The notes beneath the pieces were generated by a model, which saw only the letters and a list, made by a program, of their open reading frames with translations, ran no database searches and was not told where the DNA came from. The translations under genes were made by a program, and so were the position numbers. This document shows positions 3,481 to 28,948 of a DNA stretch of 32,000 bases, in pieces (within the stretch, counting starts at the first letter, position 1; the number at the start of each line of letters is the position of its first letter). Source of the DNA: an uncultured delta proteobacterium (GTDB lineage Bacteria; Desulfobacterota; Desulfobacteria; Desulfobacterales; JAFDCJ01); NCBI GenBank assembly GCA_963765595.1, contig CAVXXE010000004.1, forward strand, positions 45,902 through 77,901, in the 5' to 3' direction.

Positions 3481-3481
3481 T

Positions 3482-8112: not shown

Positions 8113-8168
8113 AATAATTTATTCACTCATGAGCGCTATGTCCCATCAATTTATTCTGTACTTGAAAA

Positions 8169-10088: not shown

Positions 10089-10274
10089 AGTAGATCTCCT
10101 TCTTTGGATTCTTAGTAAGCGTTCACAGGTTCATTGCTTTTTCCTGGATTTTACACCTGCCCTGAATTTGTCCCAGAAATCCTTGTCCGTATCCTTTAAG
10201 TAAATAAAATACCTTGTAAATTATTACGTTGTGGATCTACGAACTCTGTGGTGGATATTAATTTACAATGCTGA

Positions 10275-10307
10275 GGCCCATAGCATGAAAATGAACTGCT
10301 ATGGGCC
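10275..10307 (-). other. Perfect 11-bp stem hairpin (GGCCCATAGCA / TGCTATGGGCC, 11-nt loop) between the UbiD-like stop and the ligase start
   Basis: Read directly from the sequence. It starts 16 nt downstream of the UbiD-like stop on the minus strand. No U-run follows, so it is not a canonical terminator. Confidence 0.45.
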
Positions 10308-10322
10308 ATCATCTATGGGCTA

Positions 10323-11744
10323 TCAGCAGACAACTTTATCCAATCCCAGTTCCGACCAGCGGCCCTTGACTCTTTCAACGATTTCAGGATCCAATTCGAT
10401 GGGGATCGGTTTATCTTTCCAGTCATAGGGGATGGTGGCGTCCAACAGCAGCCTGCCGGTGATTTCTCTAGCGTTGATGGGTAGGGATGGATCCAGCGGT
10501 GTGGATCGTCCGCGTTTGATGACCTGAGAGCGATTGGGCTGAAAGCGGAAGCTCAAGGCGTACATGACCCGGGGGATATCCCAGGGATCGATGTCTTCAT
10601 CGACCACGATCACGGTTTTAAGCCCATAGGCACCCATCTCGGTAGAGATGGCGGCGGTCAGGACCTGGTCCGCGTGTCCGGGATACATCTGCTTAATTGA
10701 AATAATGGCCAGAAAACGGCCGGAGCCTTCCGGTGGGCAGTAAACGGCTTTTAATCCGGGAATTTTCATGGCCAGCAGCTGCTGCCACAGGGTGGCGCCG
10801 TAGGAGAGTGCCATGGTCATATGGGTATCGGTGACAGCCCGGCCGACGGTGGTTCCCCACAAAATCGGGTTGTTTCGGTGGGTAACGCATTTGACATCGA
10901 TAAAATTACGCGGATCGGTACCGACGCCGGAATAATAGCCGGTATACTCGCCAAACGGTCCTTCTTCCATAAATTTGTCGGCATCGACTTCGCCTTCGAT
11001 GACGATCTCTGCATGGGCCGGTATGGGCAGATCGACGGATTCTCCCTTGACCACTTCAACGGCCTCGCCGCGCAGTGCTCCGGCGACATCGTATTCCGAA
11101 GTAAAGGCGGAAATGCGGGCGGCTCCCAGGATAAAGAGCAGCGGGTCGCAACCGATCACCGAAGCCACCGGCATGGGTTTGCCCATGGCCTGGTATTTTT
11201 TCAGCATGATGTCGGCGTGTTTGCCCTTGATGAACTGGGTGCCCATCTTGTCCTTGCCAAGTAGCTGGCTGCGGTAGGTTCCCAAGTTAACCCAGCCGGT
11301 CTCGGGATCTTTGCTGATGATAAAATGGGCGGTGCCGATAAAACGTCCGCCATCCAGGGGATACCACTGGGGAACGGGGAATTTATAAAGATCGATATCA
11401 TCACCGCTTAAAATATTTTCTTTGCAGGGTGCCGCTGAGGCCGCCACTTCCTTGGGCGGTATCAGGTTCTCACCCAGTTTTGCCCATTCAACATAAAGAT
11501 CGACAAGGGTGGATTCGAGGGGCAGACCCATGATCAAAGCCAGCCTTTCGGTGGTGGTGCAAACGCTGGTGATCACCGGTGTATCATAATCTTTGACGTT
11601 TTCGAACAGCAGGGCCGGGCCGCTTTGTTCTTCATTTAATTTGGCGATATGCGACAGCTCCAGGTTCCAGTCGACTTCCGCCGTAATTCGTTTGCACAGC
11701 CCCACTTCTTCACCTTTGGCAATGAAATCTCTCATGTTTTTCAT
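10323..11744 (-). CDS. UbiD-family (de)carboxylase (prFMN-dependent family; resembles the large subunits of phenylphosphate-carboxylase-type enzymes)
   Basis: 473 aa. N-terminus MRDFIAKGEEVGLCKRITAEVDWNLELSHIAKLNEEQSGPALLFENVKDYDTPV follows the UbiD pattern (LRDF...L.RI...VD..LE...I......GPALLFEN). Length and body are consistent with the family. ubiX lies in the same gene string. Confidence 0.88.
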   Translation of the reverse strand: MKNMRDFIAKGEEVGLCKRITAEVDWNLELSHIAKLNEEQSGPALLFENVKDYDTPVITSVCTTTERLALIMGLPLESTLVDLYVEWAKLGENLIPPKEVAASAAPCKENILSGDDIDLYKFPVPQWYPLDGGRFIGTAHFIISKDPETGWVNLGTYRSQLLGKDKMGTQFIKGKHADIMLKKYQAMGKPMPVASVIGCDPLLFILGAARISAFTSEYDVAGALRGEAVEVVKGESVDLPIPAHAEIVIEGEVDADKFMEEGPFGEYTGYYSGVGTDPRNFIDVKCVTHRNNPILWGTTVGRAVTDTHMTMALSYGATLWQQLLAMKIPGLKAVYCPPEGSGRFLAIISIKQMYPGHADQVLTAAISTEMGAYGLKTVIVVDEDIDPWDIPRVMYALSFRFQPNRSQVIKRGRSTPLDPSLPINAREITGRLLLDATIPYDWKDKPIPIELDPEIVERVKGRWSELGLDKVVC

Positions 11745-11847
11745 TTCGATCCTTTTCTCCTCTTTTAATTTGGTGTTATTGTGATTATTACGTTTGTTGA
11801 GTAAATTGAGTTATATTTCACCCTAGTTGAACGACGCTCAATTAGGT

Positions 11848-11889
11848 GGTACTCGGTATTGGGTATTCGGCATTGGTTCCGCATTCCCT
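11848..11889. repeat. Degenerate tandem heptamer tract
   Basis: ggtactc ggtattg ggtattc ggcattg gttccgc attccct. Confidence 0.6.
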
Positions 11890-11967
11890 CCGGGGTTTAG
11901 GCCCCTATGGCCCCTACGGCTTCCGGCGCGTAGATAGAGCCTACAGCTCGGAGAGCCCGGAGGCCGT

Positions 11968-12023
11968 CTTCCCACTTCCAATACCTCTGCCCTTGGCCTT
12001 TAACCTTGAACCCGGAACCTTTT
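11968..12023. repeat. Degenerate tandem heptamer tract
   Basis: cttccca cttccaa tacctct gcccttg gccttta accttga acccgga acctttt. It ends 4 nt before the stop codon of the upstream minus-strand gene. Confidence 0.6.
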
Positions 12024-12027
12024 TCCT

Positions 12028-13098
12028 CTAGCTCGGAAGCTTGATCCGCTTCATCGCCTGTTCCATCAACAACTGATAACCGGTCTTTTTGCCGAGTACC
12101 GATTCCTTCTTGCGCTGGCTCCAGACGGTTTCCGGGCGTGCCTGAACAATGAAAATATTTTCCGGAAACGAAAAATCCTTGTCGATGGCCCACTCGATAT
12201 CCATGGCGCGGCCGTAGTGGGTTTCTATGGTTTTGGCTGTTTTGACCAGTTCTTTTATTTCCTGGTCCTCAAGACAGCAGGTGCACTGCATGTCTGCGGC
12301 TACATCGGCGTCGACGGTTTCTCCTTTTTCGACGTCGAAGACACACTCGATGTGTTTGGTGGAGATGGTCCGCTCATTGATCTCCCCCATGACCTTGTCG
12401 ACGACGAATTTGTCCGGGTTGACGGAGCCGGACACGACCGTTTCTCCCAAACCCCAGCTTCCTTCAAGCACGACTTTGGAAATATCCCCGTCGGTGGGAT
12501 TGAGGGTGAACATCACCCCCGCGGCCTTTGAGTTCACCATTTTCTGAACACCGACACTGATCAGTACCTTTTCATGGGGGAAGTCATTTTTAACCCGGTA
12601 GCTGATGGCCCGCGGCGTATATAGGCTGGCCCAACATTTTCGCACACTTTCATTGACCCGCTCAGCACTCGTTATCCAAAGGTAAGTGTCCTGCTGTCCG
12701 GCAAAACTGGCCGTAGGCAGATCTTCCGCGGTCGCGCTGGATCTTACCGCTACCGGAAGGGCATCAACCTCGCATTTTTTGCAAAGCAGAGAATATCCGT
12801 CCGCGATCGCCTTTTGGACATCATCAGGGATGACCGCCGTCCTGATCATTTCCTGGATTTTTTCGGCGACCTGGTTAAGCGCATCGATATTATCGGGATC
12901 CAGATCCGCCAGGAGGCTGAAAATTGTATTATTTATCCCGGCTTTCTCCATAAATACCGCATAACTGCTGGTGGTGACGGCAAATCCTGGAGGAACCCGA
13001 ATACCGGCATTGATCAACTCTCCCAGACTGGCATTTTTACCGCCAACCACCGGCAGCAAACTTTTATTCAGTTTGCGAAAATTCAGGATTAAATCCAT
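12028..13098 (-). CDS. PEP/pyruvate-binding (ATP-grasp, PPDK_N-type) protein; phenylphosphate-synthase small (about 40 kDa) subunit-like
   Basis: VVGGKNASLGELI and VAVRSSATAEDLPTASFAGQQDTYL match the nucleotide-binding N-terminal domain of PEP synthase. I place the start at the internal ATG 13096-13098 (MDLILNFRKL...) because SD AGGAGA lies 7 nt upstream. The longer track ORF to 13194 adds a basic, non-homologous extension. Confidence 0.8.
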   Translation of the reverse strand: MDLILNFRKLNKSLLPVVGGKNASLGELINAGIRVPPGFAVTTSSYAVFMEKAGINNTIFSLLADLDPDNIDALNQVAEKIQEMIRTAVIPDDVQKAIADGYSLLCKKCEVDALPVAVRSSATAEDLPTASFAGQQDTYLWITSAERVNESVRKCWASLYTPRAISYRVKNDFPHEKVLISVGVQKMVNSKAAGVMFTLNPTDGDISKVVLEGSWGLGETVVSGSVNPDKFVVDKVMGEINERTISTKHIECVFDVEKGETVDADVAADMQCTCCLEDQEIKELVKTAKTIETHYGRAMDIEWAIDKDFSFPENIFIVQARPETVWSQRKKESVLGKKTGYQLLMEQAMKRIKLPS

Positions 13099-13146
13099 TA
13101 TTATTCTCCTGCAGAATCTCCGAAATCTTTTATATTGCTTCCAAGA

Positions 13147-13170
13147 CCCCCTCCCCGGTCGGGGAAGGGG
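13147..13170 (-). other. GC-rich intercistronic hairpin (CCCCTCCCC-ggtc-GGGGAAGGGG)
   Basis: Read directly from the sequence. It lies in the 125-nt spacer between the two synthase-like genes. Confidence 0.4.
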
Positions 13171-13223
13171 TGCGAAGGTTGCAGTATTACTCATCTCTAC
13201 AAGGGTACTCGAACCGGTGCTGT

Positions 13224-15086
13224 TTAACTCGCTCTTTCGACAATCGTGACAACACCGGTATCACCATCGACTTTGACAATATCACCGGTTTTAATAGCGG
13301 CGGTGGCGATACCGCAGCCGGTTACCGAAGGCACACCATATTCACGGCAGACAATCGCCGCATGGCTGGTCAGCCCGCCGATGTCGGTTACCGCGGCCTT
13401 GATATTGGTGAAGACCGGGGCCCAGGATGGATTGGTCGACGGGCAAACCAAGACCTCACCCGGCTGCAGGTCGACAATGTCCTTGAGCCGCTTGAGAACC
13501 CGCGCCGGACCTTCAGCCACGCCGGCCGAAGAGGCAAAACCCTTGATTTCAGACATGTCCGCACCTGCCGTCGTGTCGACCCCTTTGAGCCATTCCTTGA
13601 CCTTGTCGGTGGTGATCCCCCACAGCATGATGGTGAACGGCTCGGCCACTTCTTCGGGTGGCACGCCCAGGGCCGGTGTCGGATTCCATTCGACGGCCGC
13701 CTCGAGGATCTTTCTGCGTTTCGCGGCCTTGGATTTATAGTATTCATCCCTGACCGGTATATCCACGCCCAGAGCCCAGGCGGTTGCAACTTCAGTCAGA
13801 AGCTGCGGAATTTCGTAACGGTTGAACATAAATATGTCGTCGACATCATCAATCATTCCGTTGTCAACCAGGACCGATCCAATTTGCCTGATTTTTTTAT
13901 ACCAAATGGTATGGAACCAATGCTCTACCCAGAAGAGATGATCCTCGGCATAGCGGTAGATGGTTCTGATGGTGTTATAGGCATCATCAAAGGCTTTGCG
14001 GTCGTCGTCGGTTTGTATCATCTTGCGGTACTCGGCGACAATTTCATTGCGTTCCTTCTCGATCCCATCCAGGGAGCGCTCGATGGTTTCGCCTTTTTCA
14101 AGCCTTTCGACATAACCTTTGATATAGCTATAGGGAATGTCCAAATCAGTCAGCCAGCTGCCTTCGTGATGGTACCAGCCGCTGCCACAGGATACGTAAA
14201 ACCAGGGGTCACTTGACTTTTCATATTCGGCCAGCCAGTTTTTGCCGGCTTCTGATTGTTGAAGTTCAGCAATCTTCTCGGCGGCGGATTTTGTGCTCTT
14301 GAGAATGCTGCCCACGCCATCCGCCGAAACTGCCAGCCGGGCCAGGCGGCAAAGCTCTTCTTCGGGGCGGAACATGGAAACATAGGCGCCGGCCACCATC
14401 TTGCCGATGGCACTTTCGCTGATCCCGGGAAAAAGCTTACGGGACACATCGCCAAACATCAGATAGGCCAGATAGGTCAAGTTGAGCATTTCGAAATGAT
14501 ATTGCCAACCTTTGAACATCTGGTTGACCAGCTTGTCGAAGGACTCGATCAGGTCGTAACCTTCATAATACCCCGTGGGGGCCGGAAAAACCTTGTCATC
14601 GGGGACGTATTTAGGCAATTCCGCGGGGATCTGAACGGCCCTCATTTCTTCCCCCAGGGCCTTGAATTTCGTCAGCCATTTGTCCCACAATTCATCGTAG
14701 TGTTCAAAGACATAAAATACCCGTTTTTCAAAATGGGCGGCTTTTTCAGCGATAATTTCATCGGGCGGCGGGGCAATCGCGCAGATATACAGGTAGCAGC
14801 CCACCAACCGCTGGGCAATTCCCTGGGCCGGAGGGATGCAAAATACGCGGGTCGTATACTGTGACAATGAAATCTGCCAGGCTTCCTGAAAGATTAAATC
14901 CAGCGGCGGCAGTGGTTCGGGTGCGTGGATTTTGTCCGCATACCAGAATTGGGCCTTTTCCCAATCGGCTCGATCCTGTGAGAATAGGTGATGGGTGGGA
15001 TACATTTCCTCCCAGCCTTCAAGCTCCGGGGGGACTTTAAACTCGTGAGGGTCCGGAAATCTGCCTTCATTATCTGCCATTTTCAT
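13224..15086 (-). CDS. PEP-utilising enzyme, mobile phosphohistidine-domain protein; phenylphosphate-synthase large (about 70 kDa) subunit-like
   Basis: 620 aa. The C-terminal swivel-domain motif DIGGLTSHAAIVCREYGVPSVTG carries the catalytic-type His (about residue 575 by my count). The large N-terminal region is not PEP-synthase-like. The true start may be the second ATG at 15080, which has AGGAGA 6 nt upstream. Confidence 0.8.
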   Translation of the reverse strand: MKMADNEGRFPDPHEFKVPPELEGWEEMYPTHHLFSQDRADWEKAQFWYADKIHAPEPLPPLDLIFQEAWQISLSQYTTRVFCIPPAQGIAQRLVGCYLYICAIAPPPDEIIAEKAAHFEKRVFYVFEHYDELWDKWLTKFKALGEEMRAVQIPAELPKYVPDDKVFPAPTGYYEGYDLIESFDKLVNQMFKGWQYHFEMLNLTYLAYLMFGDVSRKLFPGISESAIGKMVAGAYVSMFRPEEELCRLARLAVSADGVGSILKSTKSAAEKIAELQQSEAGKNWLAEYEKSSDPWFYVSCGSGWYHHEGSWLTDLDIPYSYIKGYVERLEKGETIERSLDGIEKERNEIVAEYRKMIQTDDDRKAFDDAYNTIRTIYRYAEDHLFWVEHWFHTIWYKKIRQIGSVLVDNGMIDDVDDIFMFNRYEIPQLLTEVATAWALGVDIPVRDEYYKSKAAKRRKILEAAVEWNPTPALGVPPEEVAEPFTIMLWGITTDKVKEWLKGVDTTAGADMSEIKGFASSAGVAEGPARVLKRLKDIVDLQPGEVLVCPSTNPSWAPVFTNIKAAVTDIGGLTSHAAIVCREYGVPSVTGCGIATAAIKTGDIVKVDGDTGVVTIVERAS

Positions 15087-15317
15087 TCTCCTTTTTAATT
15101 AGATTAAATGATATTAGAAAGAGCCTAGATGGGCTCATAAACAGAGAGTTGTCTGTGCCGGCTATAAGGATGGGTGAAGCACCGGAGAACGAAAATATGA
15201 ATCAAATTGCAAGACGACAGAGCCATAGAGCTCTCAAATCAGGTGATTATGAAGAATAATTATTTTTTTATGAACGAATAGTAAAAAACTGTCAATCTAA
15301 TTATATTTATGCTATTG

Positions 15318-15332
15318 ATAAGTTTTACTTAT
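15318..15332. promoter_or_regulatory. LysR-type T-N11-A palindrome ATAAG-TTTTA-CTTAT
   Basis: Perfect 5-bp arms, ending 39 nt upstream of the LysR GTG start. It lies inside the 285-nt divergent spacer shared with the synthase operon. Confidence 0.35.
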
Positions 15333-15371
15333 GGTAGGGATACATATATAAAAATTGCTTAGGCAAATATC

Positions 15372-16331
15372 GTGCTGAACTTTAACCAACTGCGGGTGTT
15401 TTACCACGCTGCAAAAAATTTGAATTTTACCATGGCGGCCAATGAGCTCTTTATTACCCAGCCGGCGGTGACATTTCAGATGAAGGCTTTTGAAGAGTTC
15501 TGCAATTTGAAACTTTTTAAAAAGAGGGCACGGCGGTTGTTTTTAACTGATGAGGGCCGGGCGCTTCTTGAATACGCTGAAAAAATTTTTAAATATGAAA
15601 AAGAAATCGAAAATGTCATCGAAGACATGCGGGAACTCAAACGAGGTGTCCTCAGTCTGGGTACCACCAAAGCCTATGCCCGCTATTTCATGCCGCTGAT
15701 GCTAAGCACCTTTCACCAAAAATTTCCCAAGATAAAAATCCAACTGAATGAAGGCAGTTCCCTGGACATGACCTATAGTCTGCTTGATTTTAAAATCGAG
15801 GTGGCCGTGGTCGCCAAAGCCGGGGAGCTGCCCGAAGTTGATTTTTTTCCTTTCAGCAAGGAAGAAATGGCGATCATCGTGGCTCCAGACCATCATTTTA
15901 CAAAGAAAAGGTCCATCGCTTTTAAAGACCTCGCCAATGAGCCATTCATCATGAAGGAGCAAGGCTCGGGAACCCGCAAATTGGTTGAAGAATTATTTTC
16001 AGATGCAGACTGCGCACCGGATATTCTGATGGAAACCAGCAACACCGAATTTATCAAGCAGCTGGTCCAGCGTGGTGAAGGAATTTCTTTTTTAGTGAAA
16101 GAAGCGGTGGCGGCTGAGATTGAGGAGAAAAAATTGGCCCAGGTGGCGCTGAAAGGCCGCCCACTTTTTTTAGACGTCAGCATTGCCTATCTTAAAGGTC
16201 AGGTGCTTTCACCGCCTGCCAGGGCATTCGTGGACACTCTCAGAAATTTGAAAACCGATGATGAGGAAATGCACCCCATGGGAATCGGGTTGATGATGGC
16301 CAAAATTCTTGCCCAACGGAAAACCAGATGA
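15372..16331 (+). CDS. LysR-family transcriptional regulator
   Basis: 319 aa. N-terminal HTH LNFNQLRVFYHAAKNLNFTMAANELFITQPAVTFQMKAFEE followed by a LysR substrate-binding domain. GTG start. Confidence 0.85.
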   Translation: MLNFNQLRVFYHAAKNLNFTMAANELFITQPAVTFQMKAFEEFCNLKLFKKRARRLFLTDEGRALLEYAEKIFKYEKEIENVIEDMRELKRGVLSLGTTKAYARYFMPLMLSTFHQKFPKIKIQLNEGSSLDMTYSLLDFKIEVAVVAKAGELPEVDFFPFSKEEMAIIVAPDHHFTKKRSIAFKDLANEPFIMKEQGSGTRKLVEELFSDADCAPDILMETSNTEFIKQLVQRGEGISFLVKEAVAAEIEEKKLAQVALKGRPLFLDVSIAYLKGQVLSPPARAFVDTLRNLKTDDEEMHPMGIGLMMAKILAQRKTR

Positions 16332-16457
16332 CGGATGACTGAGAATCTTGAATGCGAAAGTCGGAATGCGGAAGGCGGAATAGAGAAACAGAGGACAGAT
16401 GACGGATGAGGGCAGGGAGCATGGCGCATGGGGCATAGAGCAGAGCTCGCTTTTCGC
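16325..16457. repeat. Purine-rich degenerate heptamer array (array D)
   Basis: Units from 16332: cggatga ctgagaa tcttgaa tgcgaaa gtcggaa tgcggaa ggcggaa tagagaa acagagg acagatg acggatg agggcag ggagcat ggcgcat ggggcat agagcag agctcgc ttttcgc. By hand count about 71 of 119 positions are identical at lag 7. A 14-nt direct repeat, cagatgacggatga, occurs at 16325 and 16396. Confidence 0.7.
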
Positions 16458-16562
16458 CATTTAATGATTTTAGCAACCAAACTGACGAAAGAACACGAAA
16501 CATATTCGTTGCGCCACAAATGCACAAAGACGCGAACATGAACTCTTCCAAGGTCAGCAATT

Positions 16563-17789
16563 TCACTTTGCGTGTTGTATTAGCTTTTGCTGAGCCTCGA
16601 TGATGGCCCGGCTAAACATGGGATCGTTGATATGACAGGGCAGGGTCCTCAGGTTGGCTTGGTTATCTAATATTTTCTCCAGCATTTTAACAAATAGTGG
16701 CGGGGCAGCGGGATCATGCAAAGGGCCGTCTGGGTGGTCGAAAGCCGAGAACCCTTTCATCGGCACCAGGATTTTCCAGGGTCCCTGCGCCTGATTGCAT
16801 AATTCGCCTATGATTTTGGCCAGCGCTTCTATCTCGTTCTGTTGGGTACGCACGACGGTTATGGCGGCATTGTGGACATGGTAAGGGCGGCCGGGGAAAC
16901 TGCGTTCGACGGTCTCCAGAGGGCCGGTGACCAGAAAATCGATGTTGCCGGGGATAATAATAGTGGGAATACCCCGCTTCAGGGCGACGGTCCCGCGCGC
17001 CGGCCCGGCATCGTAGTCTCCGCCAAAATGATGATCCGCCAATTCGTGCAACGACAGGTCTACCAGGGCAGCTACCTTTTCCTGGGCCAGCATTTCTTCC
17101 ATGGCCTTCCCGCCGGCCCCCACCGTATGGAAGATGATCACTTCATTGCCTTTTTCTTCCAGGGTTTGGCGAATGTTTTGGACGCACGCTTCGGTGGTGC
17201 CCAGGGTGGATATAAACACCAGTGGTTTTTGTTTTGAATCATCCTTGCCGGCGGTGTGTCGCAACATGCCGGCCATTGCCAGCGCACCGTTGCGAAGAAC
17301 TTTTTTGGTGACCCGGTTAAGGCCCGTCAGATCGCAAACCGAGTGCAGCATGAAAATGTCTTTGGTGCCGACAAATGCGCGGGTGTCGCGGGATGCCATG
17401 GTGGAAATCATCACCTTGGGAACGCCGATGGCAAGGTTGCGCATGACTGCCGTGCCCAGGGTAGTGCCCATGGAACCGCCCAGTCCGATAACGCCCTGGA
17501 TTTCACCCTGATGATATAACTCCCGGGCGCATTTGACAGCCCCGGTGGTCATGATTTTCAAGGCCCTGCCTTCGTGGCCGATGTTTTGAACCTCTTTCAG
17601 CGGTTTGCCGCCGGCTTGAGCGACCTTTTCCCGTGTGATGTCTACCGGTACCGGACTTGCGCCTCGGATGCCGGCATCCATAATTTTAACCTGAATCCCC
17701 TCTTTATTAATACAATCGGCGATATACAGGGCTTCCTGGCCTTTGGTGTCCATGGTAGCGACTAATAAAGCGACAGAGCGATGTGGCAA
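16563..17789 (-). CDS. UPF0261 / Tm-1-like ATP-binding domain protein (copy B)
   Basis: 408 aa. LLVATMDTKG, GVPKVMISTMASRDTRAFVGTKDIFMLHSV and HTVGAGGKAMEEMLAQEKVAALVDLSLHELADHHFGG. TTG start at 17787-17789 with SD GGAGG 5 nt upstream. Confidence 0.8.
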   Translation of the reverse strand: MPHRSVALLVATMDTKGQEALYIADCINKEGIQVKIMDAGIRGASPVPVDITREKVAQAGGKPLKEVQNIGHEGRALKIMTTGAVKCARELYHQGEIQGVIGLGGSMGTTLGTAVMRNLAIGVPKVMISTMASRDTRAFVGTKDIFMLHSVCDLTGLNRVTKKVLRNGALAMAGMLRHTAGKDDSKQKPLVFISTLGTTEACVQNIRQTLEEKGNEVIIFHTVGAGGKAMEEMLAQEKVAALVDLSLHELADHHFGGDYDAGPARGTVALKRGIPTIIIPGNIDFLVTGPLETVERSFPGRPYHVHNAAITVVRTQQNEIEALAKIIGELCNQAQGPWKILVPMKGFSAFDHPDGPLHDPAAPPLFVKMLEKILDNQANLRTLPCHINDPMFSRAIIEAQQKLIQHAK

Positions 17790-17854
17790 AATAACCTCCG
17801 TTGGTTTCGGAAATTCTTCAATTGACCGAAATCATATAGCTCGTAACGGTTCCA

Positions 17855-17889
17855 TTTTTATGTTTTATGCTGTATTCCATTATTCCAGT
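17855..17889. repeat. Degenerate tandem heptamer tract
   Basis: tttttat gttttat gctgtat tccatta ttccagt, in the spacer between UPF0261 copies C and B. Confidence 0.5.
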
Positions 17890-18000
17890 TCTTGAGTCGA
17901 TGGTTTGCGATAAATTCTCCCTAAGCAAGTGTTCACAGGTTCAAGGTTATTATTCAAATATGACATTAATACTTAGACTATAATTACTCGATATTTAAGT

Positions 18001-19203
18001 TTATTTATGTATCATTGCATCCATCAAAGTGGCCGCAATCTCGCCAAAGGCGCTGTCGTTGATGTGCCGATCCACCTCTTGAATTTCGATTTGAGGATCG
18101 AGAACCTCTTTCAGCCTCCCGGTAAAAATTAAGTTCATTTCAGGATCATATAAAGGTCCGCCTTGCCGGTCGGCCTCGGACCAGCCTCTGCCAGGAATCA
18201 GCACTTTTATGTTGCCTGCATCGCGGTTCAGTTTTTCCGCCAGTTGATTTGCCAGACAGGTGGTTTCTTCAATGTTGAGCCGGATTGCGGAGCGGAAGTC
18301 GTAGAAAAAGATTTTTCGATTTTTATATTCGTCCGGAATGTTCTGTCGGGTAAATTCCAGAACCGCACAATCCAGCCCTCCCGGAACGACCAGCCGGGGG
18401 ATCGATCTGCCGGGAACCGGTTCGTACCGTTGCGGTCCGATGGCACCGCAATAGCCATCCAGCAGATGATCCGCCAGCTCGTGGGTGGCCAGGTCCAGAA
18501 TGCCGTCAAAATACCCTTCCGCCGCCAGTTCTTCCATGGCCATGCCGCCGGTGCCGTTGGCATGGAAGGCAACAACTTCATACCCCAGCCTTTCCAGGGC
18601 CTTGCGGGTGGCTTCAGCCCCGGCAGTGATAAAACCGAAAAAGGGCAGGGCGATGCGTTTTTTTACTTCAGCGGGTTGCCATTGACTTCGAACCATGCCG
18701 CATATGGCGGCGGCGCCTTTATCCAGGATGTTGCCTGAAATGCTGTTGACACCCAGCAGATCCGCGACGCTGTGGATCATGGTAATGTCTTTAGTGGAGA
18801 CGATATCGGCCATGTTGCGTGAGGCCACGGTGGAGATCATCACCTTGGGAACACCCAAGGGCAGTTCGCGCATAATGGTGGCGCAGATATGGGTTCCCGT
18901 ACCGCCGCCGGCTGAAATTATGCCGCTGATTTTGCCGTCCCCATGCAGTTTATTAATTTGTACTTTGGCCTCGTGCAGCATGGCATTTATTATATTATCT
19001 CTTCCCTCAGGTATGTCCGACGCGTTTTCCGTGACATTTTGAAACAAATCTAGATCCACCGGCACCGGTGATGGCGCCCGGGTTCCGACGTTAATCGTCA
19101 GCGTCCGTAATCCCCGTTGCGCTATCTGCTCTTTTAAAAACATGTGTTCTTCTGCTTTAGAATCGAAGGTTCCAACGACAGCGATGGCAGAATCAATTTT
19201 CAT
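18001..19203 (-). CDS. UPF0261 / Tm-1-like ATP-binding domain protein (copy C)
   Basis: 400 aa. IAVVGTFDSKA, GVPKVMISTVASRNMADIVSTKDITMIHSV and HANGTGGMAMEELAAEGYFDGILDLATHELADHLLDG. Confidence 0.8.
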   Translation of the reverse strand: MKIDSAIAVVGTFDSKAEEHMFLKEQIAQRGLRTLTINVGTRAPSPVPVDLDLFQNVTENASDIPEGRDNIINAMLHEAKVQINKLHGDGKISGIISAGGGTGTHICATIMRELPLGVPKVMISTVASRNMADIVSTKDITMIHSVADLLGVNSISGNILDKGAAAICGMVRSQWQPAEVKKRIALPFFGFITAGAEATRKALERLGYEVVAFHANGTGGMAMEELAAEGYFDGILDLATHELADHLLDGYCGAIGPQRYEPVPGRSIPRLVVPGGLDCAVLEFTRQNIPDEYKNRKIFFYDFRSAIRLNIEETTCLANQLAEKLNRDAGNIKVLIPGRGWSEADRQGGPLYDPEMNLIFTGRLKEVLDPQIEIQEVDRHINDSAFGEIAATLMDAMIHK

Positions 19204-19301: not shown

Positions 19302-19379
19302 TTGCTTTTCGCATTCCACATTCCGACTTCAGACTTCTGTTTTCTGTCCTCTGACTTCCGTCATCTGATCTCTGGCCTC
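19302..19379. repeat. Pyrimidine-rich degenerate heptamer array (array E)
   Basis: ttgcttt tcgcatt ccacatt ccgactt cagactt ctgtttt ctgtcct ctgactt ccgtcat ctgatct ctggcct. By hand count about 46 of 70 positions are identical at lag 7. A 16-nt palindrome, AGGCCGAATTCGGCCT, lies just upstream at 19271-19286. Confidence 0.7.
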
Positions 19380-19863
19380 AGCGATCATGCCGGCTGCAAC
19401 CCGAAAAACCCATCCTTGTGCCAGACCAAAGGTGGTCTTTCCGTAATCTTCTTGATCTACAACCCGGCCGATGAAAATCCGGTATCCCTTAATTTCTTGA
19501 CTGCTCTCCACCTTACACTCCATCCAGGCCGCCGACCCTTCGGGAATGGGGGCATTGCTGGTTTTTGCCGGTTGGATTTATGAAATTTTTCAAACTTGTC
19601 CGCTGTCTCACCTTTGATACTCCCCACTTGCATGGCCAGATTTCTTCTGGTCCTAGCCGGCGATTACCAGGGTGAATTTTTCGGATTGATTCGATTAATT
19701 TCTCGGTGAGATGGTCCTTGGCAACACTGATGGCAAGCAGCGGCTCTTTTTCCGAAACAAACATCGCCGTGGCTGTCATGATATCACGCGTTTCTCCATG
19801 GGCCGTGCATACAAACACTACCGAACACGGCAGCCAGTAAAAAACATTATTTTCTCTATCCAT
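19329..19863 (-). pseudogene. Flavin-reductase-like (FMN-binding split-barrel) gene with several frame disruptions
   Basis: The start is intact (SD GGGAGG, ATG at 19861-19863). LPCSVVFVCTAHGETRDIMTATAMFVSEKEPLLAISVAKDHLTEKLIES fits the flavin-reductase domain. The continuation is scattered over three frames: FTLVIAG then an in-frame TAG, GETADKFEKF, and IQPAKTSNAPIPEGSAAWMECKVESSQEIKGYRIFIGRVV. The apparent C-terminal tail is a translation of heptamer array E. Confidence 0.55.
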
Positions 19864-20096
19864 TTTTTTTCCTCCCGATAATTAGCCGGTGATCGAAAGA
19901 CTGTCTCAAGACCGGTATTTAAATTGATAGTTCCCTATTTCATGGTTCCAATATACCACTTTACAAAGCCGTAGCGAGATGAAGGTTAATTCCACAACAA
20001 CTTTATAGTGTCATTTATTACTATAATTGCAGAATGTAAAGTGTGGTTTGACATTTTGATCTGTGATTGTTTTGTGTAAATTGCCGTGTTCAGCCT

Positions 20097-20543
20097 TTAG
20101 GATTTATCCTTAATTTTGAGAAAATCTTCTATCTGATCAAGATGCAGTTTGCGGTGTATAGAACGATAAAGCCTAAACTTTTCTCCAAGACCTTCAATTT
20201 CAGCAATGAAGTCTGAAGAGGCTTCTTCTAATTCACGATCTATCGCTTCAGCAGATGAAATCGCAAGATTGGCGGCTTTCCGCGGGTGTATAGCCAGCCA
20301 TTGAGAAAGGAGCGAATCATTGGTGACATCGATATCTATCGATGATGGCTCAACACCGCTCTTCTTCCATTTCCTCATCAAAAATAGTATTCGCTGATCC
20401 CAAAATGACAGATGCGCAAGGGCAACTGCGATGGTCCAGCCATTGCATAGAGGGAGGCTTAGCTCATTGTCTGTCAAGCGTTCGATAAGAGAACGCAGCC
20501 TTTCACGTTCTTTAGCATTCTCCGCGACAAATGGTCGTTCCAT
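20097..20543 (-). CDS. DinB-like four-helix-bundle protein (tentative), function unknown
   Basis: Start placed at MERPF... because SD GGGAGG lies 5 nt upstream. The helical sequence with AHLSFWDQR resembles the DinB/DinB_2 histidine-containing helix. This is a weak, motif-level call only. Confidence 0.45.
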   Translation of the reverse strand: MERPFVAENAKERERLRSLIERLTDNELSLPLCNGWTIAVALAHLSFWDQRILFLMRKWKKSGVEPSSIDIDVTNDSLLSQWLAIHPRKAANLAISSAEAIDRELEEASSDFIAEIEGLGEKFRLYRSIHRKLHLDQIEDFLKIKDKS

Positions 20544-21290
20544 AGAGCCTCCCTTAGTCAACCTTCAACCTGCAACCCTTCATTAATCGAAATGAATTTT
20601 AGATGCTTTGTGCCATAACTTTAGTTTCCAACATAAGATAAACGATGATGAACTATCTGGCATATTATCAGAAAAGGACACAATATTGAAGTATGAATCG
20701 TGCCAAAAAAAATAGGCTCACTCTGGTGAAAGTTTGTTCCGTTGTCTTCTTTCTAATTCCAGCATATTAATCCTGATAAGATGAAGGCTAATAATTTCGG
20801 TGGCATATTTAGCGGGCTATTAAGGTGGGATTAAAATAGAAAATATGGCCCGAAATAAACGACTGTCTTCTGTAAGATATCATTTGAGTATCTTGAACTT
20901 TAAGCAATTGGTATTATTGCATATATATAGCAGTTGTGTTGCCAGTTCCAGTTATGTTGTCAGTATGGGATTTACTTCCTTTAGTTCTTCTTATCTTCTT
21001 CCCAGAAAATTTAAAAAATACATATAATTCTTCTAATTCCCTTCCATCTGGTTCTTTTTCTTGATATCTTATTCTTGACCACCGGAATGGGAGGTAAATA
21101 GAAGAACAAACGATCACCTTTCCGTGGTCATTAAAAACCTGATTATCAGGGCCTCAGGGCGAAAGGAGAAGTAATTCATATGAAGTCTGAACGCCTGAGG
21201 GAAAGACAAATAGTTGCTCTGCCTGAGCGGCCTCTAAGGAAGCAATTGGCATTCTGAGCTCCAACCGCAGGGGTGCCCGGGCGATCTCGA

Positions 21291-21424
21291 ATTATGTTGT
21301 GAGTCATTCTTACAATTTTGTAACTAATCTTATAACAAGCTGAATACATTGCTAATATGAATTTTTCGCGGACTCATCAATAAATCCAATAATTTCAGTC
21401 GGATAGGTGAACTCACAACATAAT
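21291..21424. repeat. Perfect 14-nt inverted repeat (ATTATGTTGTGAGT ... ACTCACAACATAAT) enclosing 106 nt
   Basis: Arms at 21291-21304 and 21411-21424, read directly. No ORF lies inside and there is no obvious target duplication. Confidence 0.6.
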
Positions 21425-21595
21425 AGCAGAAAGCAACACCTCAGCCTTGAAATCTTGAAATGAAGATATCACAAATTTTAGCGGTCCCCGATAAATTCAA
21501 CTTTGTTAGAGATACTACAAAAATTAGAACCGCAAAGAAACCTGTGTTACACAGCAGACCATACAATTATCGCATTTTTTCATTACTTCATTTTT

Positions 21596-21627
21596 GGAGG
21601 AGGCTGTAAAGGCCTCCCCCAATTTTT
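21596..21627 (+). terminator. Hairpin GGAGGC-tgtaaag-GCCTCC followed by CCCAATTTTT
   Basis: Stem at 21599-21604 and 21612-21617, T-run at 21623-21627 on the plus strand. It also lies about 45 nt beyond the stop of the minus-strand hydrolase gene, but there is no U-run in that orientation. Confidence 0.35.
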
Positions 21628-21664
21628 GCAAACACCTTTATCTTTTGGCCTGAGCGATCCTGGA

Positions 21665-22975
21665 TCAGCGTGGTCGTATACGTTCATCCATATCCGGGAT
21701 CACAAAGCCTGGAACAAATCGGCAAGGACCCTCGAAAGAGGTCGTGTTTTCAATATCTACGCAAACTCCTTGGATATCGGCCGCTGTTGGCTGTGGAAAT
21801 CCTGCTATCCAGGCCCGCAGTGACTCCCAACCGGCTAAAGCTTCGGCCTCTGTGAAGTCGCAGTGACTTGGGGCATCTTCCACGGCAATTGCCACCGTAA
21901 GATTTTCGGCTGGCACAACATAAGCGTAATCGCTTTCGTTTTCCACAACCACCAGACCATCCTTATCCGTATGTATAGCTATAATTTTTGTATCTCCTAC
22001 ATCCCCGGTCGGCGTGAAATTCCGTTCTAGCCGGTTTTCTGCTCCCGGGTGCGGTGACACGCGGTCTATGCTGTCATTTATTTTATTGTCACCATAGTCC
22101 ACATCGGCGTTGCCCGTGCCGAGTCTGCTATTGAGCTTGTGTTTGTCATGAACGAGGTCGCTCATATTCAGGGTTGCATAGAACATGTCTTTAATTAGAA
22201 AATTCTCAGGGATTCTTGCAAGAGCCAATATAGTGGCCAGATTGGCTGCTTGATCCGGCGTGCGAAAGGTTGGTGGCAAAAGGACCCCGGTGGCCACGTT
22301 CACCGCCATTGCGATTTCGAACTCTGTCAATATGGAATCTTCCGGCAAACCTTCTGCGCCACCCGGGATCTCAGCACCGGGTATGCCTGCCGCCACTGCG
22401 TCATAGATCAGCCTGAGGTCCAGTGCACCGTCCCAGTTCCGGCTGCCGGCCACAGCGCCGCAAAGACTATAGGCCCCTACAACATTCCCGAGATTAGCTT
22501 TTTCGATCGCCTGGGCGGTAACCGCACCACCCAGCGACGCCCCGGTGACGATCACTTCGTTGGGCTCCCCAAATTGATCCTTGAACTCGCCAAACATGTT
22601 CTGCAAATCGTTCTTAGTTTTAAACAAGGCCCAACCTGCTTGCCGGAAGCTGGAAGCTGCGACTGCGTATCTCTCATCAAGCTGGATGGACGCCAGGGGT
22701 CCCAGGTCTTCCTTAGACAGGGGCCCTGGAGCATCGAGCGTGAAACCGTGGTTCCAAATCACCAGGTCTCCGTTCCAATCTTCCGGGACTGCAATCAAGT
22801 AGAAAGCTCCACCGCCGGTCATGCCGTTCATAAAGGTTATAGGTGGTTGAGCCCTTCCTATGGATGCTGTTGCTAAGCACAACGCCAGAATGGTAAGCTT
22901 GAGTATCAACGACCTCACGCACGAAAATGCTTGCCAGTTGACAGTATTTTTAATCTTTATGGTGTTTCTGGCCAT
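21665..22975 (-). CDS. Secreted alpha/beta-hydrolase-fold protein (esterase/lipase-like)
   Basis: 436 aa. SD AGGAGG 7 nt upstream. Signal peptide (LILKLTILALCLATASIGRAQP). Nucleophile elbow G-x-S-x-G (VTGASLGGAV). Confidence 0.7.
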   Translation of the reverse strand: MARNTIKIKNTVNWQAFSCVRSLILKLTILALCLATASIGRAQPPITFMNGMTGGGAFYLIAVPEDWNGDLVIWNHGFTLDAPGPLSKEDLGPLASIQLDERYAVAASSFRQAGWALFKTKNDLQNMFGEFKDQFGEPNEVIVTGASLGGAVTAQAIEKANLGNVVGAYSLCGAVAGSRNWDGALDLRLIYDAVAAGIPGAEIPGGAEGLPEDSILTEFEIAMAVNVATGVLLPPTFRTPDQAANLATILALARIPENFLIKDMFYATLNMSDLVHDKHKLNSRLGTGNADVDYGDNKINDSIDRVSPHPGAENRLERNFTPTGDVGDTKIIAIHTDKDGLVVVENESDYAYVVPAENLTVAIAVEDAPSHCDFTEAEALAGWESLRAWIAGFPQPTAADIQGVCVDIENTTSFEGPCRFVPGFVIPDMDERIRPR

Positions 22976-23554
22976 TTTCTACCTCCTTTTGTGTTCGCCA
23001 AATGAGTGGTGTTTAACTTAAACGATGCATTGTTTATAAAATCATATTGCCAAACAGAACAATTAATGTTCGCTTAGCAGCTGGATGAGCAGCATTTGAG
23101 ACCTTTTCGATTTTTATCACCAAATCCCTCCGGCTTTATGAGCAAGAGCCGCCCCACAAAAGTGTAAGGCGGCATGGCAATATGTGCTGGGGTGGCATAG
23201 GGGGTTATAACCGATGGAACTTCCCTGTAAGTAACCTTCGGTTCTTAATCTCAAATGAGCAAAAAAAATCCTTATGGGTTCGGGGACAAAAGCGATGCTT
23301 CTGTTTTTGATACCCGTATCGAGGACTCCGCCAAGTGTATCCATTACATGCCCAGCAGGCGCGCGCGGGATACTGGGATTCAACGTCAACAGGAGGCGGG
23401 TCGAGCAGATCCGGAAACAACTGCGGGAAGCCGGAGTCGTACGTCAGGATGGACCCGCAAAATTCGATTTTCCCTTTGGCAGGAATTCGCATAGTAGATT
23501 AGGCCGCCAGGCTGTAATCCACCACCATTTCAGCTCATTTACGCTTTCACCTCC

Positions 23555-24493
23555 TCAGAAAGCTGCTACGCACTCCGGCTCCGCTCTTTCACCATTGACT
23601 CGATTATTGCTCCACCGGTTCATGGAGTCACAGTTACCATCTTCATCCACATTTTCATCCAATAGATTGCGTTCTTGCGGCGGATCGGGATTGCAGCCCT
23701 CTTCGTCGCAACCTAGATTACCGCTTGTCCTGTTATTAATGACGATATTTTCCGTGGCGCCATCCGTGATATCGATCCCCGCGTAAAACCAGGGTCTATA
23801 GTCTTCATCGGAGGCTTCGCAGGTAACCGGGTTGCCGTTATCCGCCACATAATTGTTTATCAGAGAGTTGTCATACCCTTCATTATCAATCTCAATGCCA
23901 TCCCGGCAGTTATCAAAAGCGGCGCTGTTCCTGATCTTGTTATCACTTCCTCCGTCAATAATGAAGCCTTGTCGGCCGTTATCCTCGGCCAAACAGTTGA
24001 CCAGCTTATTTTCATCACCGTCGATATTAAAACCCCGTCTTTTATTGTTACGAGATTCAGTGTCTATAACCTGATTATAGGCACTTCTCACCCTTATCCC
24101 TTCCCTGGTGTTATTTTCAACAATCAGCTGTAAGACTTTGTGGTGGCCATCACCCGTAATCACTACCCCGTTGTAGCAGTTGATTATAATGCCGTTTCGC
24201 ACCTTGGCATTCCGGCCCTCCAGCACAATGCCCTCACGTTCGCTTTCGGGGGGGTTATTGCAATCCACGGTATAACCGTTCAGATCGAGAATCGCACCGC
24301 CTTGGAGGGTGAGAGCTGGGTCATCGGGTACAGTACAGGTTACATTTTTGGTTAATTTGTGATGACCTTTTGCCAAAATAGCTCCGCACTCAATGGCTTC
24401 AGCCTGCGGAAAAAACATGCCCATGCCGAACAGCAAAATACCCGTGACCAATCCCAGACGTGCAGCATACTTTCTATTAGCGGTATATTTCAT
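23555..24493 (-). CDS. Secreted right-handed parallel beta-helix repeat protein (NosD/CASH-like)
   Basis: Start placed at MKYTANRKY... because SD AGGAGG lies 7 nt upstream. Hydrophobic signal/anchor (LGLVTGILLFGMGMFF). Repeated about 22-aa N/G/I-rich turns (NGIIINCYNGVVITG, NNTREGIRV, NNKRRGFNIDG, DNGRQGFIIDG, DNCRDGIEID). Cys-rich C-terminus. Confidence 0.7.
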   Translation of the reverse strand: MKYTANRKYAARLGLVTGILLFGMGMFFPQAEAIECGAILAKGHHKLTKNVTCTVPDDPALTLQGGAILDLNGYTVDCNNPPESEREGIVLEGRNAKVRNGIIINCYNGVVITGDGHHKVLQLIVENNTREGIRVRSAYNQVIDTESRNNKRRGFNIDGDENKLVNCLAEDNGRQGFIIDGGSDNKIRNSAAFDNCRDGIEIDNEGYDNSLINNYVADNGNPVTCEASDEDYRPWFYAGIDITDGATENIVINNRTSGNLGCDEEGCNPDPPQERNLLDENVDEDGNCDSMNRWSNNRVNGERAEPECVAAF

Positions 24494-25030
24494 TGTCTTA
24501 TCCTCCTGAGAATTCAAATTTGACAGCAATTAAAACAACAATTAAAATAGCCTAAAAAGAGAATAACACTCCTAACAGAAGCCAATACTCCTGTCAGGAG
24601 AAAGGCTTGCACAATTTGAGTGGTTTCTCCATTGAATCTTTACCTGATTATTAGGTTAAGTTTACAAGGAAACCAGTTCGATATTAAAATTGAAGAGCTA
24701 ACAGTAAGTGAATTTCGATTCGCGATGAGACTCAGCTCAGAATAGGATTCCGAATGAGATCAATAGTCGAATGAGAGGGCAATCAGCGTTGCGCTTCTGG
24801 GCAACAAGAGGTGTTTGGTTGATAATTTTTCCATAATACATACACGAAGTCGTTGTCATTGTCAAGAATTTGGTAAAAAGCACTACATTGTAGTAATTTG
24901 AGAGTACATGCTTGGTTGAATATACCTTGCCAATATGTGAAAATACGCAAATATTCAGATATGTTATGGCTATCTTAATAAAATCAAGGAGCCCTAAGTT
25001 TCGGATATATAGCAGAACTCAATACATTCA

Positions 25031-25067
25031 AAAAATAGAAAAGCAGGGTCATCACGGCCCTGCTTTT
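25031..25067 (-). terminator. Rho-independent terminator after the NTF2-like gene
   Basis: Stem AAAAGCAGGG (25039-25048) / CCCTGCTTTT (25058-25067). On the minus strand it is followed by TTTTCTATTTTTT. It begins 21 nt beyond the stop at 25088. Confidence 0.6.
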
Positions 25068-25087
25068 AATAGACTTTTGTTCTTGGT

Positions 25088-25385
25088 TTAGTAAATCTCA
25101 ACTTCTGATGGGATCGGAGTTTCATGACTCATAACCGCCTTCCACTTTCCATCAGATTTCACAAATACTATCGTTTCTTTAACAAAGACACGTTTGCCCA
25201 AGCCAGTTGCTTTAACAATGGCTGTGTTTGTTGTGACACCCCATACTAACCCAGTATCGCCAATAACACGATAATCGACCTTATACCACTGAGATTGAGA
25301 AAAATGCGTTTCTAACCACTTACCAAAAAACTGTTTACCCATAGCGGAATTCGTGACCATGGGAAAGGCCTGCGAAGCTGGAAGC
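25088..25385 (-). pseudogene. NTF2/SnoaL-like fold gene, 5' part separated by the IS21-family insertion
   Basis: The 90-aa ORF (..WYKVDYRVIGDTGLVWGVTTNTAIVKATGLGKRVFVKETIVFVKSDGKWKAVMSHE) looks like the C-terminal beta-sheet half of an NTF2-like protein. The same frame stays open upstream (LPASQAFP) right up to the IS end at 25385/25386. Confidence 0.5.
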
Positions 25386-25433
25386 TGATCAACGACAATT
25401 ATTAATTCCCCTCAACGACAATTAAAATTCCCG
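25386..25433. repeat. IS21-family end (istB-distal): TGATCAACGACAATTATTAATTCCC + CTCAACGACAATTAAAATTCCCG
   Basis: Two tandem sub-repeats, mirrored at 28592-28639. Confidence 0.8.
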
Positions 25434-25714
25434 TTTTTCCTGCCTCCTAAGCTATCAACATCATTAAAAAACACTTGCAAAGCATATTTTTTCATATAAT
25501 CTGCGTTTATCCTTCCGGAGGATAGGGCAACGCTGGGGAGCGACCCGAGCGCCGGTGGGATGACCGAAGTATGAGGGCCGTACTTAAAGGTGCGGCCTTT
25601 TACTTTTAATGATCTCATACTTTGGTCCATAATGCACTAAACCCCGGGGGTTTGGGGGCTGGCCCCCAAATAAAATGATACAATTTTTTTTATTGCTCGT
25701 AAAATCCAGTCCAC

Positions 25715-25739
25715 TGATCAACGACAATTAAAATTTCCG
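25715..25739. repeat. Third, internal copy of the IS end repeat (TGATCAACGACAATTAAAATTTCCG), same orientation as 25386
   Basis: The first 16 nt are identical to the outer repeat at 25386. The tail resembles the inner repeat. It lies 329 nt inside the element. Confidence 0.7.
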
Positions 25740-25905
25740 AATTTCACCACGAATTTTGATACCGCCTGTGGGCTAAATTGTTTCCTGAGTCTCCGTGTAC
25801 GTCTTTTGCAAATCCTTCCTCGTTTTCTATGCCAGGTGAAACGGAGGGAACCCAAAGGGCGACCGGAGTTTCACCTGGGTGGCGCTTAGCCGATAACCTT
25901 CGTTT

Positions 25906-26166: not shown

Positions 26167-26294
26167 ATTTCTTCTCCTATCTTTGATTTGCCGGAAAAAG
26201 GGCTTACGAGAATGCCCTACAATCAACGATCTCTGTCCGGCCCATAGGTTACCATTACTCAAAATCCACTCACTTAGAGCCCTTTGCCGAGCCA

Positions 26295-28923: not shown

Positions 28924-28948
28924 TCCTTTAATCATAAAGGAGGAATAT

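Follow-up and report, generated by a model that had tools for sequence, protein, structure and literature searches.

Three UPF0261 paralogues at a phenol-type carboxylation cluster of an uncultured Desulfobacterales lineage, one of them a predicted MarK-like kinase

What do three UPF0261 proteins do next to a catabolic gene cluster, and why does none of them have the TIM-barrel protein that usually accompanies this domain? The question is posed by a 32,000-nucleotide stretch of DNA from an uncultured delta proteobacterium of the Desulfobacterales, a bacterium of the sulfate-reducer type (GenBank assembly GCA_963765595.1, contig CAVXXE010000004.1, positions 45,902 to 77,901), here called the window, which carries three UPF0261 genes, copies A, B and C, within and beside a LysR-associated cluster. 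On balance we think it probable, though by no means assured, that the three are aryl or other phosphotransferases with different acceptors serving phenolic catabolism, copy B being a candidate MarK-like, ADP-forming phenol kinase.

Three old paralogues and the missing TIM-barrel partner

The three genes lie on the minus strand and span 12.3 kb (6904-19203), at the positions given in an earlier note on this DNA: copy A at 6904-8112 (402 amino acids; PF23189 2e-65, PF06792 2e-49), copy B at 16563-17789 (408 amino acids; PF23189 1e-69, PF06792 3e-60) and copy C at 18001-19203 (400 amino acids; PF23189 1e-59, PF06792 2e-50). Each joins an N-terminal PF06792 to a C-terminal PF23189 domain with near full-length profile coverage (Pfam, E values from 1e-49 to 1e-69), and each scores above the cut-off of NCBIfam NF002674. 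Alignment bears out the shared blocks that the earlier note had listed, G(V/I)PKVMIS, ..(F/I/L)HSV.. and G.GG.AMEE...DL..HELADH, the last in copies B and C; copy A has GGVGEH where these two have HELADH. The nucleotide-site motifs of the N-terminal domain are retained in all three paralogues, including the D-[TS]-K motif that holds the nucleotide-site lysine (Lys16 of MarK, Lys20 of Tm-1), which reads DTK in A and B and DSK in C and is invariant in the 118-120 homologues of each copy. Pairwise identities of 33-34% agree with the earlier view of the three as old paralogues. Measured against orthologues where dS is unsaturated, the ratio of nonsynonymous to synonymous rates (dN/dS) lies at 0.08-0.15 over the three copies (0.12-0.15 in B), so that all are maintained genes under purifying selection. 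Recent duplication and pseudogene formation are both ruled out by the 33-34% identity, a dN/dS of about 0.1 and residues that are invariant within each clade.

UPF0261 is a very large family, and within it copies A, B and C are stand-alone Tm-1-like ATP-binding proteins of the aromatic-kinase branch, not of the branch that pairs with a TIM barrel. The absence of such a partner from the window, which the earlier note had remarked on, was confirmed by two kinds of search. PF09370 has no match among the window's non-overlapped open reading frames (ORFs) of at least 100 amino acids (Pfam), and phmmer --max, with a verified PF09370 partner from the canonical pair of the Thermomicrobium roseum megaplasmid (451 bits) as query, found no match in six-frame segments of at least 30 amino acids of the window and reached a best E value of 0.79 in six-frame segments of 82 related loci. 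The canonical two-protein arrangement of UPF0261 with a TBST protein (PF09370) is absent from the window and from these 82 loci. A side observation comes from the T. roseum plasmid (L083, 3992-8598), where a UPF0261 and phosphoenolpyruvate (PEP)-hydrolase pair is co-directional with a stand-alone PPDK_N gene (a PpsB-like ATP-grasp) and a cyclase, another association of UPF0261 with a split PEP-utilising-enzyme module.

The statement that this domain is normally fused or adjacent to a TIM barrel stands as a tendency and fails as a rule for the branch of copy B. About 345 plasmid records carry UPF0261 and 304 carry PF09370, mostly in the same genera, and UPF0261 is also present in 97% of TBST-bearing genomes (PMC5028733). 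The purified MarK homodimer is active, however, and no TIM-barrel partner is encoded in the marK operon (PMC12624787). Because copy B belongs to the clade of this stand-alone enzyme, the missing partner is not anomalous, and the puzzle dissolves. Compared with Tm-1 and the UPF0261 + PF09370 pairs, the window proteins have the same N- and C-terminal UPF0261 domains and the ATP-binding lysine (Lys20 of Tm-1), and copy C is even slightly nearer Tm-1 (4e-51) than MarK (5e-42); they differ in their catabolic context and in having no fused or adjacent PF09370 protein.

Copy B, MarK and the acceptor pockets

MarK, 'multiple aromatic kinase' (Saro_1862 of Novosphingobium aromaticivorans, PDB 9MPY), was published in 2025 as the first UPF0261 enzyme and belongs to an aerobic, lignin-monomer pathway encoded with marK-acvCDEF (PMC12624787). 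The substrates of the homodimer are acetovanillone, 4-hydroxyacetophenone and similar phenolic aldehydes and ketones, which it phosphorylates while converting ATP to ADP; its Lys16 is essential, and the change E16K raises the rate about 1600-fold (PMC12624787). In the acceptor site, His304 pi-stacks with the ring of the substrate, whose phenolic oxygen is bound by His219 and the backbone nitrogen of Gly195 and whose ketone oxygen is bound by His348 (PMC12624787).

Copy B matches 9MPY over residues 6-404 (E = 2e-100), is 41% identical to MarK in a MAFFT alignment, enough to settle its fold, and keeps D14-T15-K16, G195, T196, H219, F283, V285, H302, H304 and N305 of MarK. The pair that binds the phenolic oxygen, Gly195 and His219, is present in both B and C (G, H) and incomplete in A (G, S), and the remaining pocket of Thr196, Phe283, Ile/Val285 and His304 is found only in B (T, F, V, H; 118/118 homologues). 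The ketone-binding His348 is replaced in all three, by Phe in B and by Ala in A and C, and is His in 16 of 16 proteins of the MarK type proper. The signature of copy B, with Phe at position 348, is invariant in 118/118 of its close database homologues. Copy B is an orthologue-level relative of MarK, and members of its subclade are predicted to be ADP-forming phenolic kinases; both the kinase activity and the formation of ADP are proposed because of the homology to 9MPY and the biochemistry of MarK (PMC12624787).

To place this subclade, one genome per GTDB species was scanned with an alignment of B homologues, yielding 80 loci, of which 62, together with the window, are closer to B than to MarK. 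The exact sequence of copy B has no database record, and genomic contexts were taken from its homologues. Hosts of the B type are Desulfobacterota-type metagenome-assembled genomes (MAGs) and the cultured phenol degrader Syntrophorhabdus aromaticivorans UI, and position 348 in this set is Phe in 56, Trp in 3, Leu in 1 and Tyr in 1 of the 61 rows with a residue there. The MarK-proper set (n = 16) comes from Acidobacteriota, Gamma- and Betaproteobacteria, Desulfatiglans/Thermodesulfobacteriota genomes and a Telmatospirillum MAG, and all 16 have His348. Genes for a biotin carboxylase and for a carboxyltransferase with biotin carboxyl carrier protein (verified by Pfam) lie within 10 kb in 12 of the 16 MarK-proper loci and in none of 63 B-type rows, so that the link of MarK to an AcvCDE/HpeCBA carboxylase and an AcvF/HpeD phosphatase is missing from B-type loci. 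PpsA/PpsB-like and UbiD genes, conversely, adjoin the B type only, except for a distant UbiD-like match (33% identity) in L072. Residue 348 therefore changes together with the kind of carboxylase encoded downstream. From this pattern we infer that B-type enzymes may phosphorylate phenols that have no acyl group, and the acceptor of copy B is probably a simple phenol because the ketone-binding His348 is replaced by Phe.

The likeness to the MarK system extends to its organisation: in both cases a two-domain UPF0261 protein without a TIM-barrel partner is encoded next door to a carboxylase that acts after phenolic phosphorylation. The systems differ in that the window has UbiD/UbiX for ring carboxylation and a PpsAB dikinase instead of the biotin-dependent AcvCDE and the AcvF phosphatase, and in that it holds three paralogues, not one, with copy A lacking His219 and position 348 occupied by Phe in B and by Ala in A and C. 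Moreover, the host of the window belongs to an uncultured, strictly anaerobic lineage.

Copies A and C have pockets of their own. The signature of copy C (D-S-K, G195, F196, H219, Y304, D305, A348) is invariant in 119-120 of 120 homologues; copy C is a sister paralogue whose ATP motif and His219 are intact but whose acceptor pocket differs, predicted to be a kinase with another acceptor. Copy A matches MarK with E = 3e-54 and has Ser at position 219, the phenol-binding His being lost; its signature (D-T-K, G195, P196, S219, D225, G247, N282, H283, T285, L304, A348) is found in 120/120 homologues, and it is a putative phosphotransferase, fixed in the operon, that would use another acceptor. As each paralogue has its own invariant pocket signature, these three distinct, strictly conserved acceptor sites argue for three predicted specificities and not for redundancy or decay.

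The carboxylation operon and its mobile neighbours

Between and around the paralogues, the gene content points to an anaerobic phenylphosphate-type carboxylation operon, LysR/PpsA-PpsB-UbiD-CoA ligase-A-UbiX, as judged from family assignments. On the minus strand it encodes the PpsA-like subunit of a two-component dikinase, with substrate-binding and phospho-His swivel parts (13224-15086; PF00391 at residues 541-611, NF006153 856 bits); the PpsB-like ATP-grasp subunit (12028-13194; PF01326 1e-119, with matches to PEP synthase N-domains in PDB); a UbiD-family carboxylase of the phenylphosphate carboxylase beta type (10323-11744; TIGR02724 513 bits against a cut-off of 469, with UbiD N, core and C domains); an aryl-carboxylate-CoA ligase (8433-10088; PF00501, PF13193); and, beyond copy A, the flavin prenyltransferase UbiX (6151-6756; NF004685 263 bits, TIGR00421). 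UbiX makes the prenylated flavin mononucleotide (prFMN) cofactor for UbiD. The LysR-type regulator (15372-16331, plus strand; PF00126, PF03466) is divergent from ppsA and convergent with B. All parts of a Pps + Ppc pathway, namely PpsA- and PpsB-like subunits, a PpcB-type UbiD, UbiX and an aryl-CoA ligase, are thus encoded in one operon.

Compared with PpcABCD of Thauera aromatica, the window has a UbiD that passes the PpcB model, a UbiX, and the same pathway logic of Pps upstream and CoA ligase downstream. It differs in that no PpcA or PpcC can be identified and that the UPF0261 gene A is a fixed operon member instead. Among window ORFs of at least 100 amino acids there is no Thauera-type PpsC (CBS), PpcA (second UbiD) or PpcC (HAD); the small PpcD was not specifically searched for. 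Desulfatiglans and Geobacter likewise have no ppcC, and their carboxylase has been proposed to work by another mechanism than the Thauera enzyme (PMC6114531). The window cluster is of this Geobacter/Desulfatiglans style of anaerobic phenol pathway, with a PpcB-type carboxylase only and no PpcC. PpsAB, HpeHI, AcvAB and CreHI are homologous AMP-forming phenol dikinases (PMC12167813), and, because a PpsAB-type dikinase and a MarK-like UPF0261 protein are encoded together, the window cluster holds both known kinds of phenol kinase. Copy B and these dikinases (PpsAB(C), HpeHI, AcvAB and CreHI), whose homologues lie in the same cluster, would carry out the same ATP-dependent phosphorylation of the phenolic hydroxyl before carboxylation. 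Their folds are nevertheless unrelated, the dikinases using an ATP-grasp and a swivelling phospho-His and releasing AMP and Pi, whereas MarK yields ADP.

The earlier note had tied the paralogues to the adjacent cluster and had asked whether their arrangement recurs in related genomes; both points held up, A being operonic and the C-B arrangement recurring next to Pps/UbiD clusters in 12 species-representative genomes as well as in contigs. The order C-B-<LysR|PpsA-PpsB-UbiD-(CoA ligase)-(A or D-clade)-UbiX is found in metagenome contigs (L001, L002 and L090-L092), and the same C-B-LysR-Pps order in 12 species representatives (L004, L006, L009, L010, L013 in part, L016, L017, L019, L020, L022, L024 and L029). 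Copy A sits between the CoA ligase and UbiX in every locus covering that position, except that a fourth UPF0261 clade (D) fills its slot in L002 and L004. The link of C to B is looser: of 53 informative B-type loci, 28 have C beside B, the two being on opposite strands in some of them, and no second UPF0261 gene lies within 6 kb of B in 18 of 36 loci with both flanks covered. Similarly, the operon with A has no C-B beside it in L089 and L093. At the other extreme, L049 has a tight, co-directional block, one operon, made up of copy A, a PpsC-like protein with a CBS domain, UbiX, B and C.

Sequence conservation divides the genes in the same way. Homologues of copy A are 85-90% identical across more than 120 protein clusters, all of 403 amino acids, and those of copy B are mostly 66-80% identical. 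Between genomes, in comparisons with L004-L029, PpsA is 80-94% identical (up to 96% for the PpsA/UbiD range), UbiD 91-96% and A 85-90%, whereas B (61-89%), C (65-87%) and LysR (61-86%) are far less conserved than the core operon. The conservation of the core fits either lateral spread or much stronger constraint. Thus copy A is a core operon gene, while C-B is a mobile accessory module that is often adjacent and, because it is convergent with lysR, forms a separate transcription unit.

A second PpsA lineage, 23-25% identical to the window PpsA, also occurs with B-type genes, its copies in L013 and L048 being 54% identical to each other. In L013 (938-7158) the order is PpsA2-PpsB-receiver-DUF89-B, and in L048 (8159-11212), from S. 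aromaticivorans UI, a LysR|PpsA2-B group stands among housekeeping genes with no PpsB-like ATP-grasp nearby. In S. aromaticivorans the UPF0261 protein possibly cooperates with the phospho-His carrier protein. Around B and LysR, relatives repeatedly carry phosphohydrolase genes of two kinds, both absent from the window: a DUF89/ARMT1 damage-control phosphatase separates C from B, and LysR has an HD-domain protein as its neighbour. Loci with DUF89/ARMT1 or HD phosphohydrolase genes are L016, L017, L019, L020, L022, L013, L056 and L093, and L089-L093.

The flanks of both units add further detail. The lysR/ppsA spacer holds a perfect palindromic T-N11-A box, ATAAGT-N3-ACTTAT (15318-15332), its sole exact copy in the window, which lies at the same place in L004; no similar box was found upstream of C or B, and an Rfam search of the window found no RNA family. 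The C-B pair is enclosed by an imperfect inverted repeat, about 60-80 nucleotides long, with its right arm at 16325-16410 and its left arm at 19307-19374, about 100 nucleotides upstream of the C start codon. Its core, TCCGTCATCTG, is confined to these two sites of the window, where it occurs three times against 0.48 expected by chance, and is also found at equivalent intergenic sites in relatives: L002 and L004 have it downstream of B, and L001 has it upstream of C. It could be a repetitive extragenic palindrome (REP)-like element, a regulator site or a cassette boundary. Upstream of C, relatives carry a flavin reductase and a UbiE-like methyltransferase, together with a CTP-dependent riboflavin kinase that is either fused to a HAD hydrolase or has one as its neighbour. 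The flavin reductase is intact (157-171 amino acids) and directly precedes C in L001, L002, L085 and L086, and the window retains a truncated gene at 19513-19863 (minus strand; weak PF01613, 116 amino acids). From 19513 to 32000, the UbiE-like methyltransferase and the riboflavin kinase-HAD have given way to a DinB-family gene, a 436-amino-acid protein of no family match (21665-22975), a beta-helix protein, an IS21 element (27050-28528) with IstB (26295-27053), Phd and HicA toxin-antitoxin genes and an IS200 fragment; this looks like a rearranged flank rich in insertion sequences.

At the other end of the window, an IclR regulator stands with an aldehyde:ferredoxin oxidoreductase (AOR) and a 4Fe-4S ferredoxin (2239-6084; Pfam), a module that also lies near the operon in L089, L090 and L093 and directly beside C-B in a Desulfatibacillum MAG (L057). 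We considered AOR and ferredoxin as BamBC of a class II benzoyl-CoA reductase and rejected the idea, because BamB is far more distant from this AOR than true AORs are. Farther out, a sulfatase gene (18-1488) is split into two overlapping ORFs, one matching the N-terminal and the other the C-terminal half of the Pfam model, probably because of a frameshift in a pseudogene or an error in sequencing.

Proposed phenol activation and its alternatives

We propose that copy B would phosphorylate the hydroxyl group of a simple phenol (phenol, cresol or similar), not of hydroxyacetophenone, converting ATP to ADP. The aryl phosphate would then feed the neighbouring prFMN-dependent UbiD/UbiX phenylphosphate-type carboxylase and, after it, the CoA ligase. 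In this pathway copy B would work in parallel with the AMP-forming PpsAB-like dikinase, either broadening the substrate range or serving as a cheaper, ADP-forming route, and copies C and A would transfer phosphoryl groups to other acceptors.

Several observations weigh against this proposal. The cluster already has a complete PpsAB-like phenol kinase, so that a second or third kinase is not obviously needed, and B has the window-type pps operon as its neighbour in just 14 of 42 informative loci, the others being unrelated contexts. C-B is convergent with lysR and is without the lysR/ppsA palindrome, so no shared regulatory site is seen. Copy A may not act on a phenolic hydroxyl at all, because His219 is absent from it. 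A distance of about 25 Å separates the ATP site from the phenol site in crystalline MarK (PMC12624787), and the description of the phenol pps/ppcB cluster of Desulfatiglans anilini mentions no UPF0261 gene (PMC6114531).

An alternative that we consider unlikely is that the operon-resident copy A, or the D-clade protein elsewhere, removes or transfers the phosphoryl group and so replaces the HAD phosphatase missing from strict anaerobes (PpcC, the gamma subunit of phenylphosphate carboxylase, or AcvF/HpeD of the acetophenone pathway), perhaps passing it back to ADP. This would suit a window with no HAD gene and only a PpcB-type UbiD, as in Desulfatiglans and Geobacter, which also lack ppcC and for which another carboxylase mechanism has been proposed (PMC6114531), and it would suit a gene that is as conserved as UbiD and PpsA and always operonic. 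Consistent with this, D-clade genes and AcvF-like HAD genes are mutually exclusive in MarK-proper loci, the former being found in L066, L067, L068, L074, L076, L077 and L079 and the latter in L069, L072, L078 and L082. However, that sample is small and has lineage (Acidobacteria versus Proteobacteria) as a confounding factor, L082 combines its HAD with a UPF0261 protein of another clade, and the nucleotide-site motifs of A and D differ (DTK versus DER). Moreover, no UPF0261 protein is known to catalyse the reverse reaction or the hydrolysis of aryl phosphates, and other phosphohydrolase genes (HD, DUF89, HAD) lie near the operon in relatives.

Similarly doubtful is the proposal of the earlier note that A, B and C form one hetero-oligomeric, ATP-dependent enzyme serving the catabolic cluster. 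MarK and Tm-1 dimerise through their N-terminal subdomain, so that mixed dimers are conceivable (PMC12624787), and the adjacency of C and B in about half of the informative loci, the single operon of A, B, C and UbiX in L049 and the presence of a second UPF0261 gene (D clade) beside MarK-proper in 7-8 loci speak for such a complex. An obligate hetero-oligomer nevertheless finds no support: B has no second UPF0261 neighbour in half of the loci covered on both sides, C and B can lie on opposite strands, and in the window A belongs to another transcription unit than C-B. The operon can have A without adjacent C-B (L089, L093) or D in place of A (L002, L004), A evolves much more slowly than B and C, and MarK works alone in vitro.

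Still less probable, in our judgement, is a role in supplying the UbiD/UbiX cofactor, for example by making dimethylallyl monophosphate or handling FMN/prFMN, and not in substrate activation. Such a role would account for the position of A (or D) directly before UbiX wherever that position is covered, for the flavin reductase, riboflavin kinase-HAD and UbiE-like methyltransferase genes that precede C-B in relatives, and for the lack of the phenol-binding His in A. It does not account for the complete MarK phenol pocket retained in B or for the D-clade and MarK-type proteins beside biotin carboxylases without UbiX, and UbiX systems generally work without UPF0261.

Tomato Tm-1 binds its target protein through ATP. 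Very improbably, A, B and C could be non-catalytic regulatory or scaffold proteins of this kind, as Tm-1 is the older paradigm of the family and C is the copy closest to it, and as the ATP and acceptor sites of MarK are separated (PMC12624787), yet their acceptor-pocket residues are strictly conserved in each clade, their genes stand among those of enzymes, and catalysis by MarK has been demonstrated.

Returning to the predicted phosphotransferases, a wider proposal combines copy B as an ADP-forming kinase with A/D as the replacement of the PpcC/AcvF phosphatase, UPF0261 proteins thereby supplying parts for an energy-saving phenol carboxylation in strict anaerobes. We regard this combination as speculative and rather unlikely. 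If it is true, copy B would halve the ATP cost of phenol activation relative to the AMP-forming PpsAB, A/D would remove the phosphoryl group of the aryl phosphate while carboxylation proceeds or once it is complete, possibly returning that group to ADP, and phenol carboxylation by organisms with only a PpcB-type UbiD would be explained. Our literature search found no paper linking UPF0261 to phenylphosphate. The cost of phenol activation in strict anaerobes and the carboxylation of phenylphosphate without the gamma and delta subunits of Thauera are an acknowledged question (PMC6114531), for which these genes are concrete candidates.

For the family, the new element is a distinct and abundant Desulfobacterota subclade of MarK with a diagnostic switch from His348 to Phe, which tracks a change in the carboxylase downstream: a biotin-dependent enzyme acting on the side chain gives way to prFMN/UbiD acting on the ring. 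This subclade is accompanied by two further UPF0261 clades, one of them fixed in the anaerobic phenol operon. The positions that appear to determine specificity could help to annotate thousands of proteins now described as 'Tm-1-like ATP-binding'.

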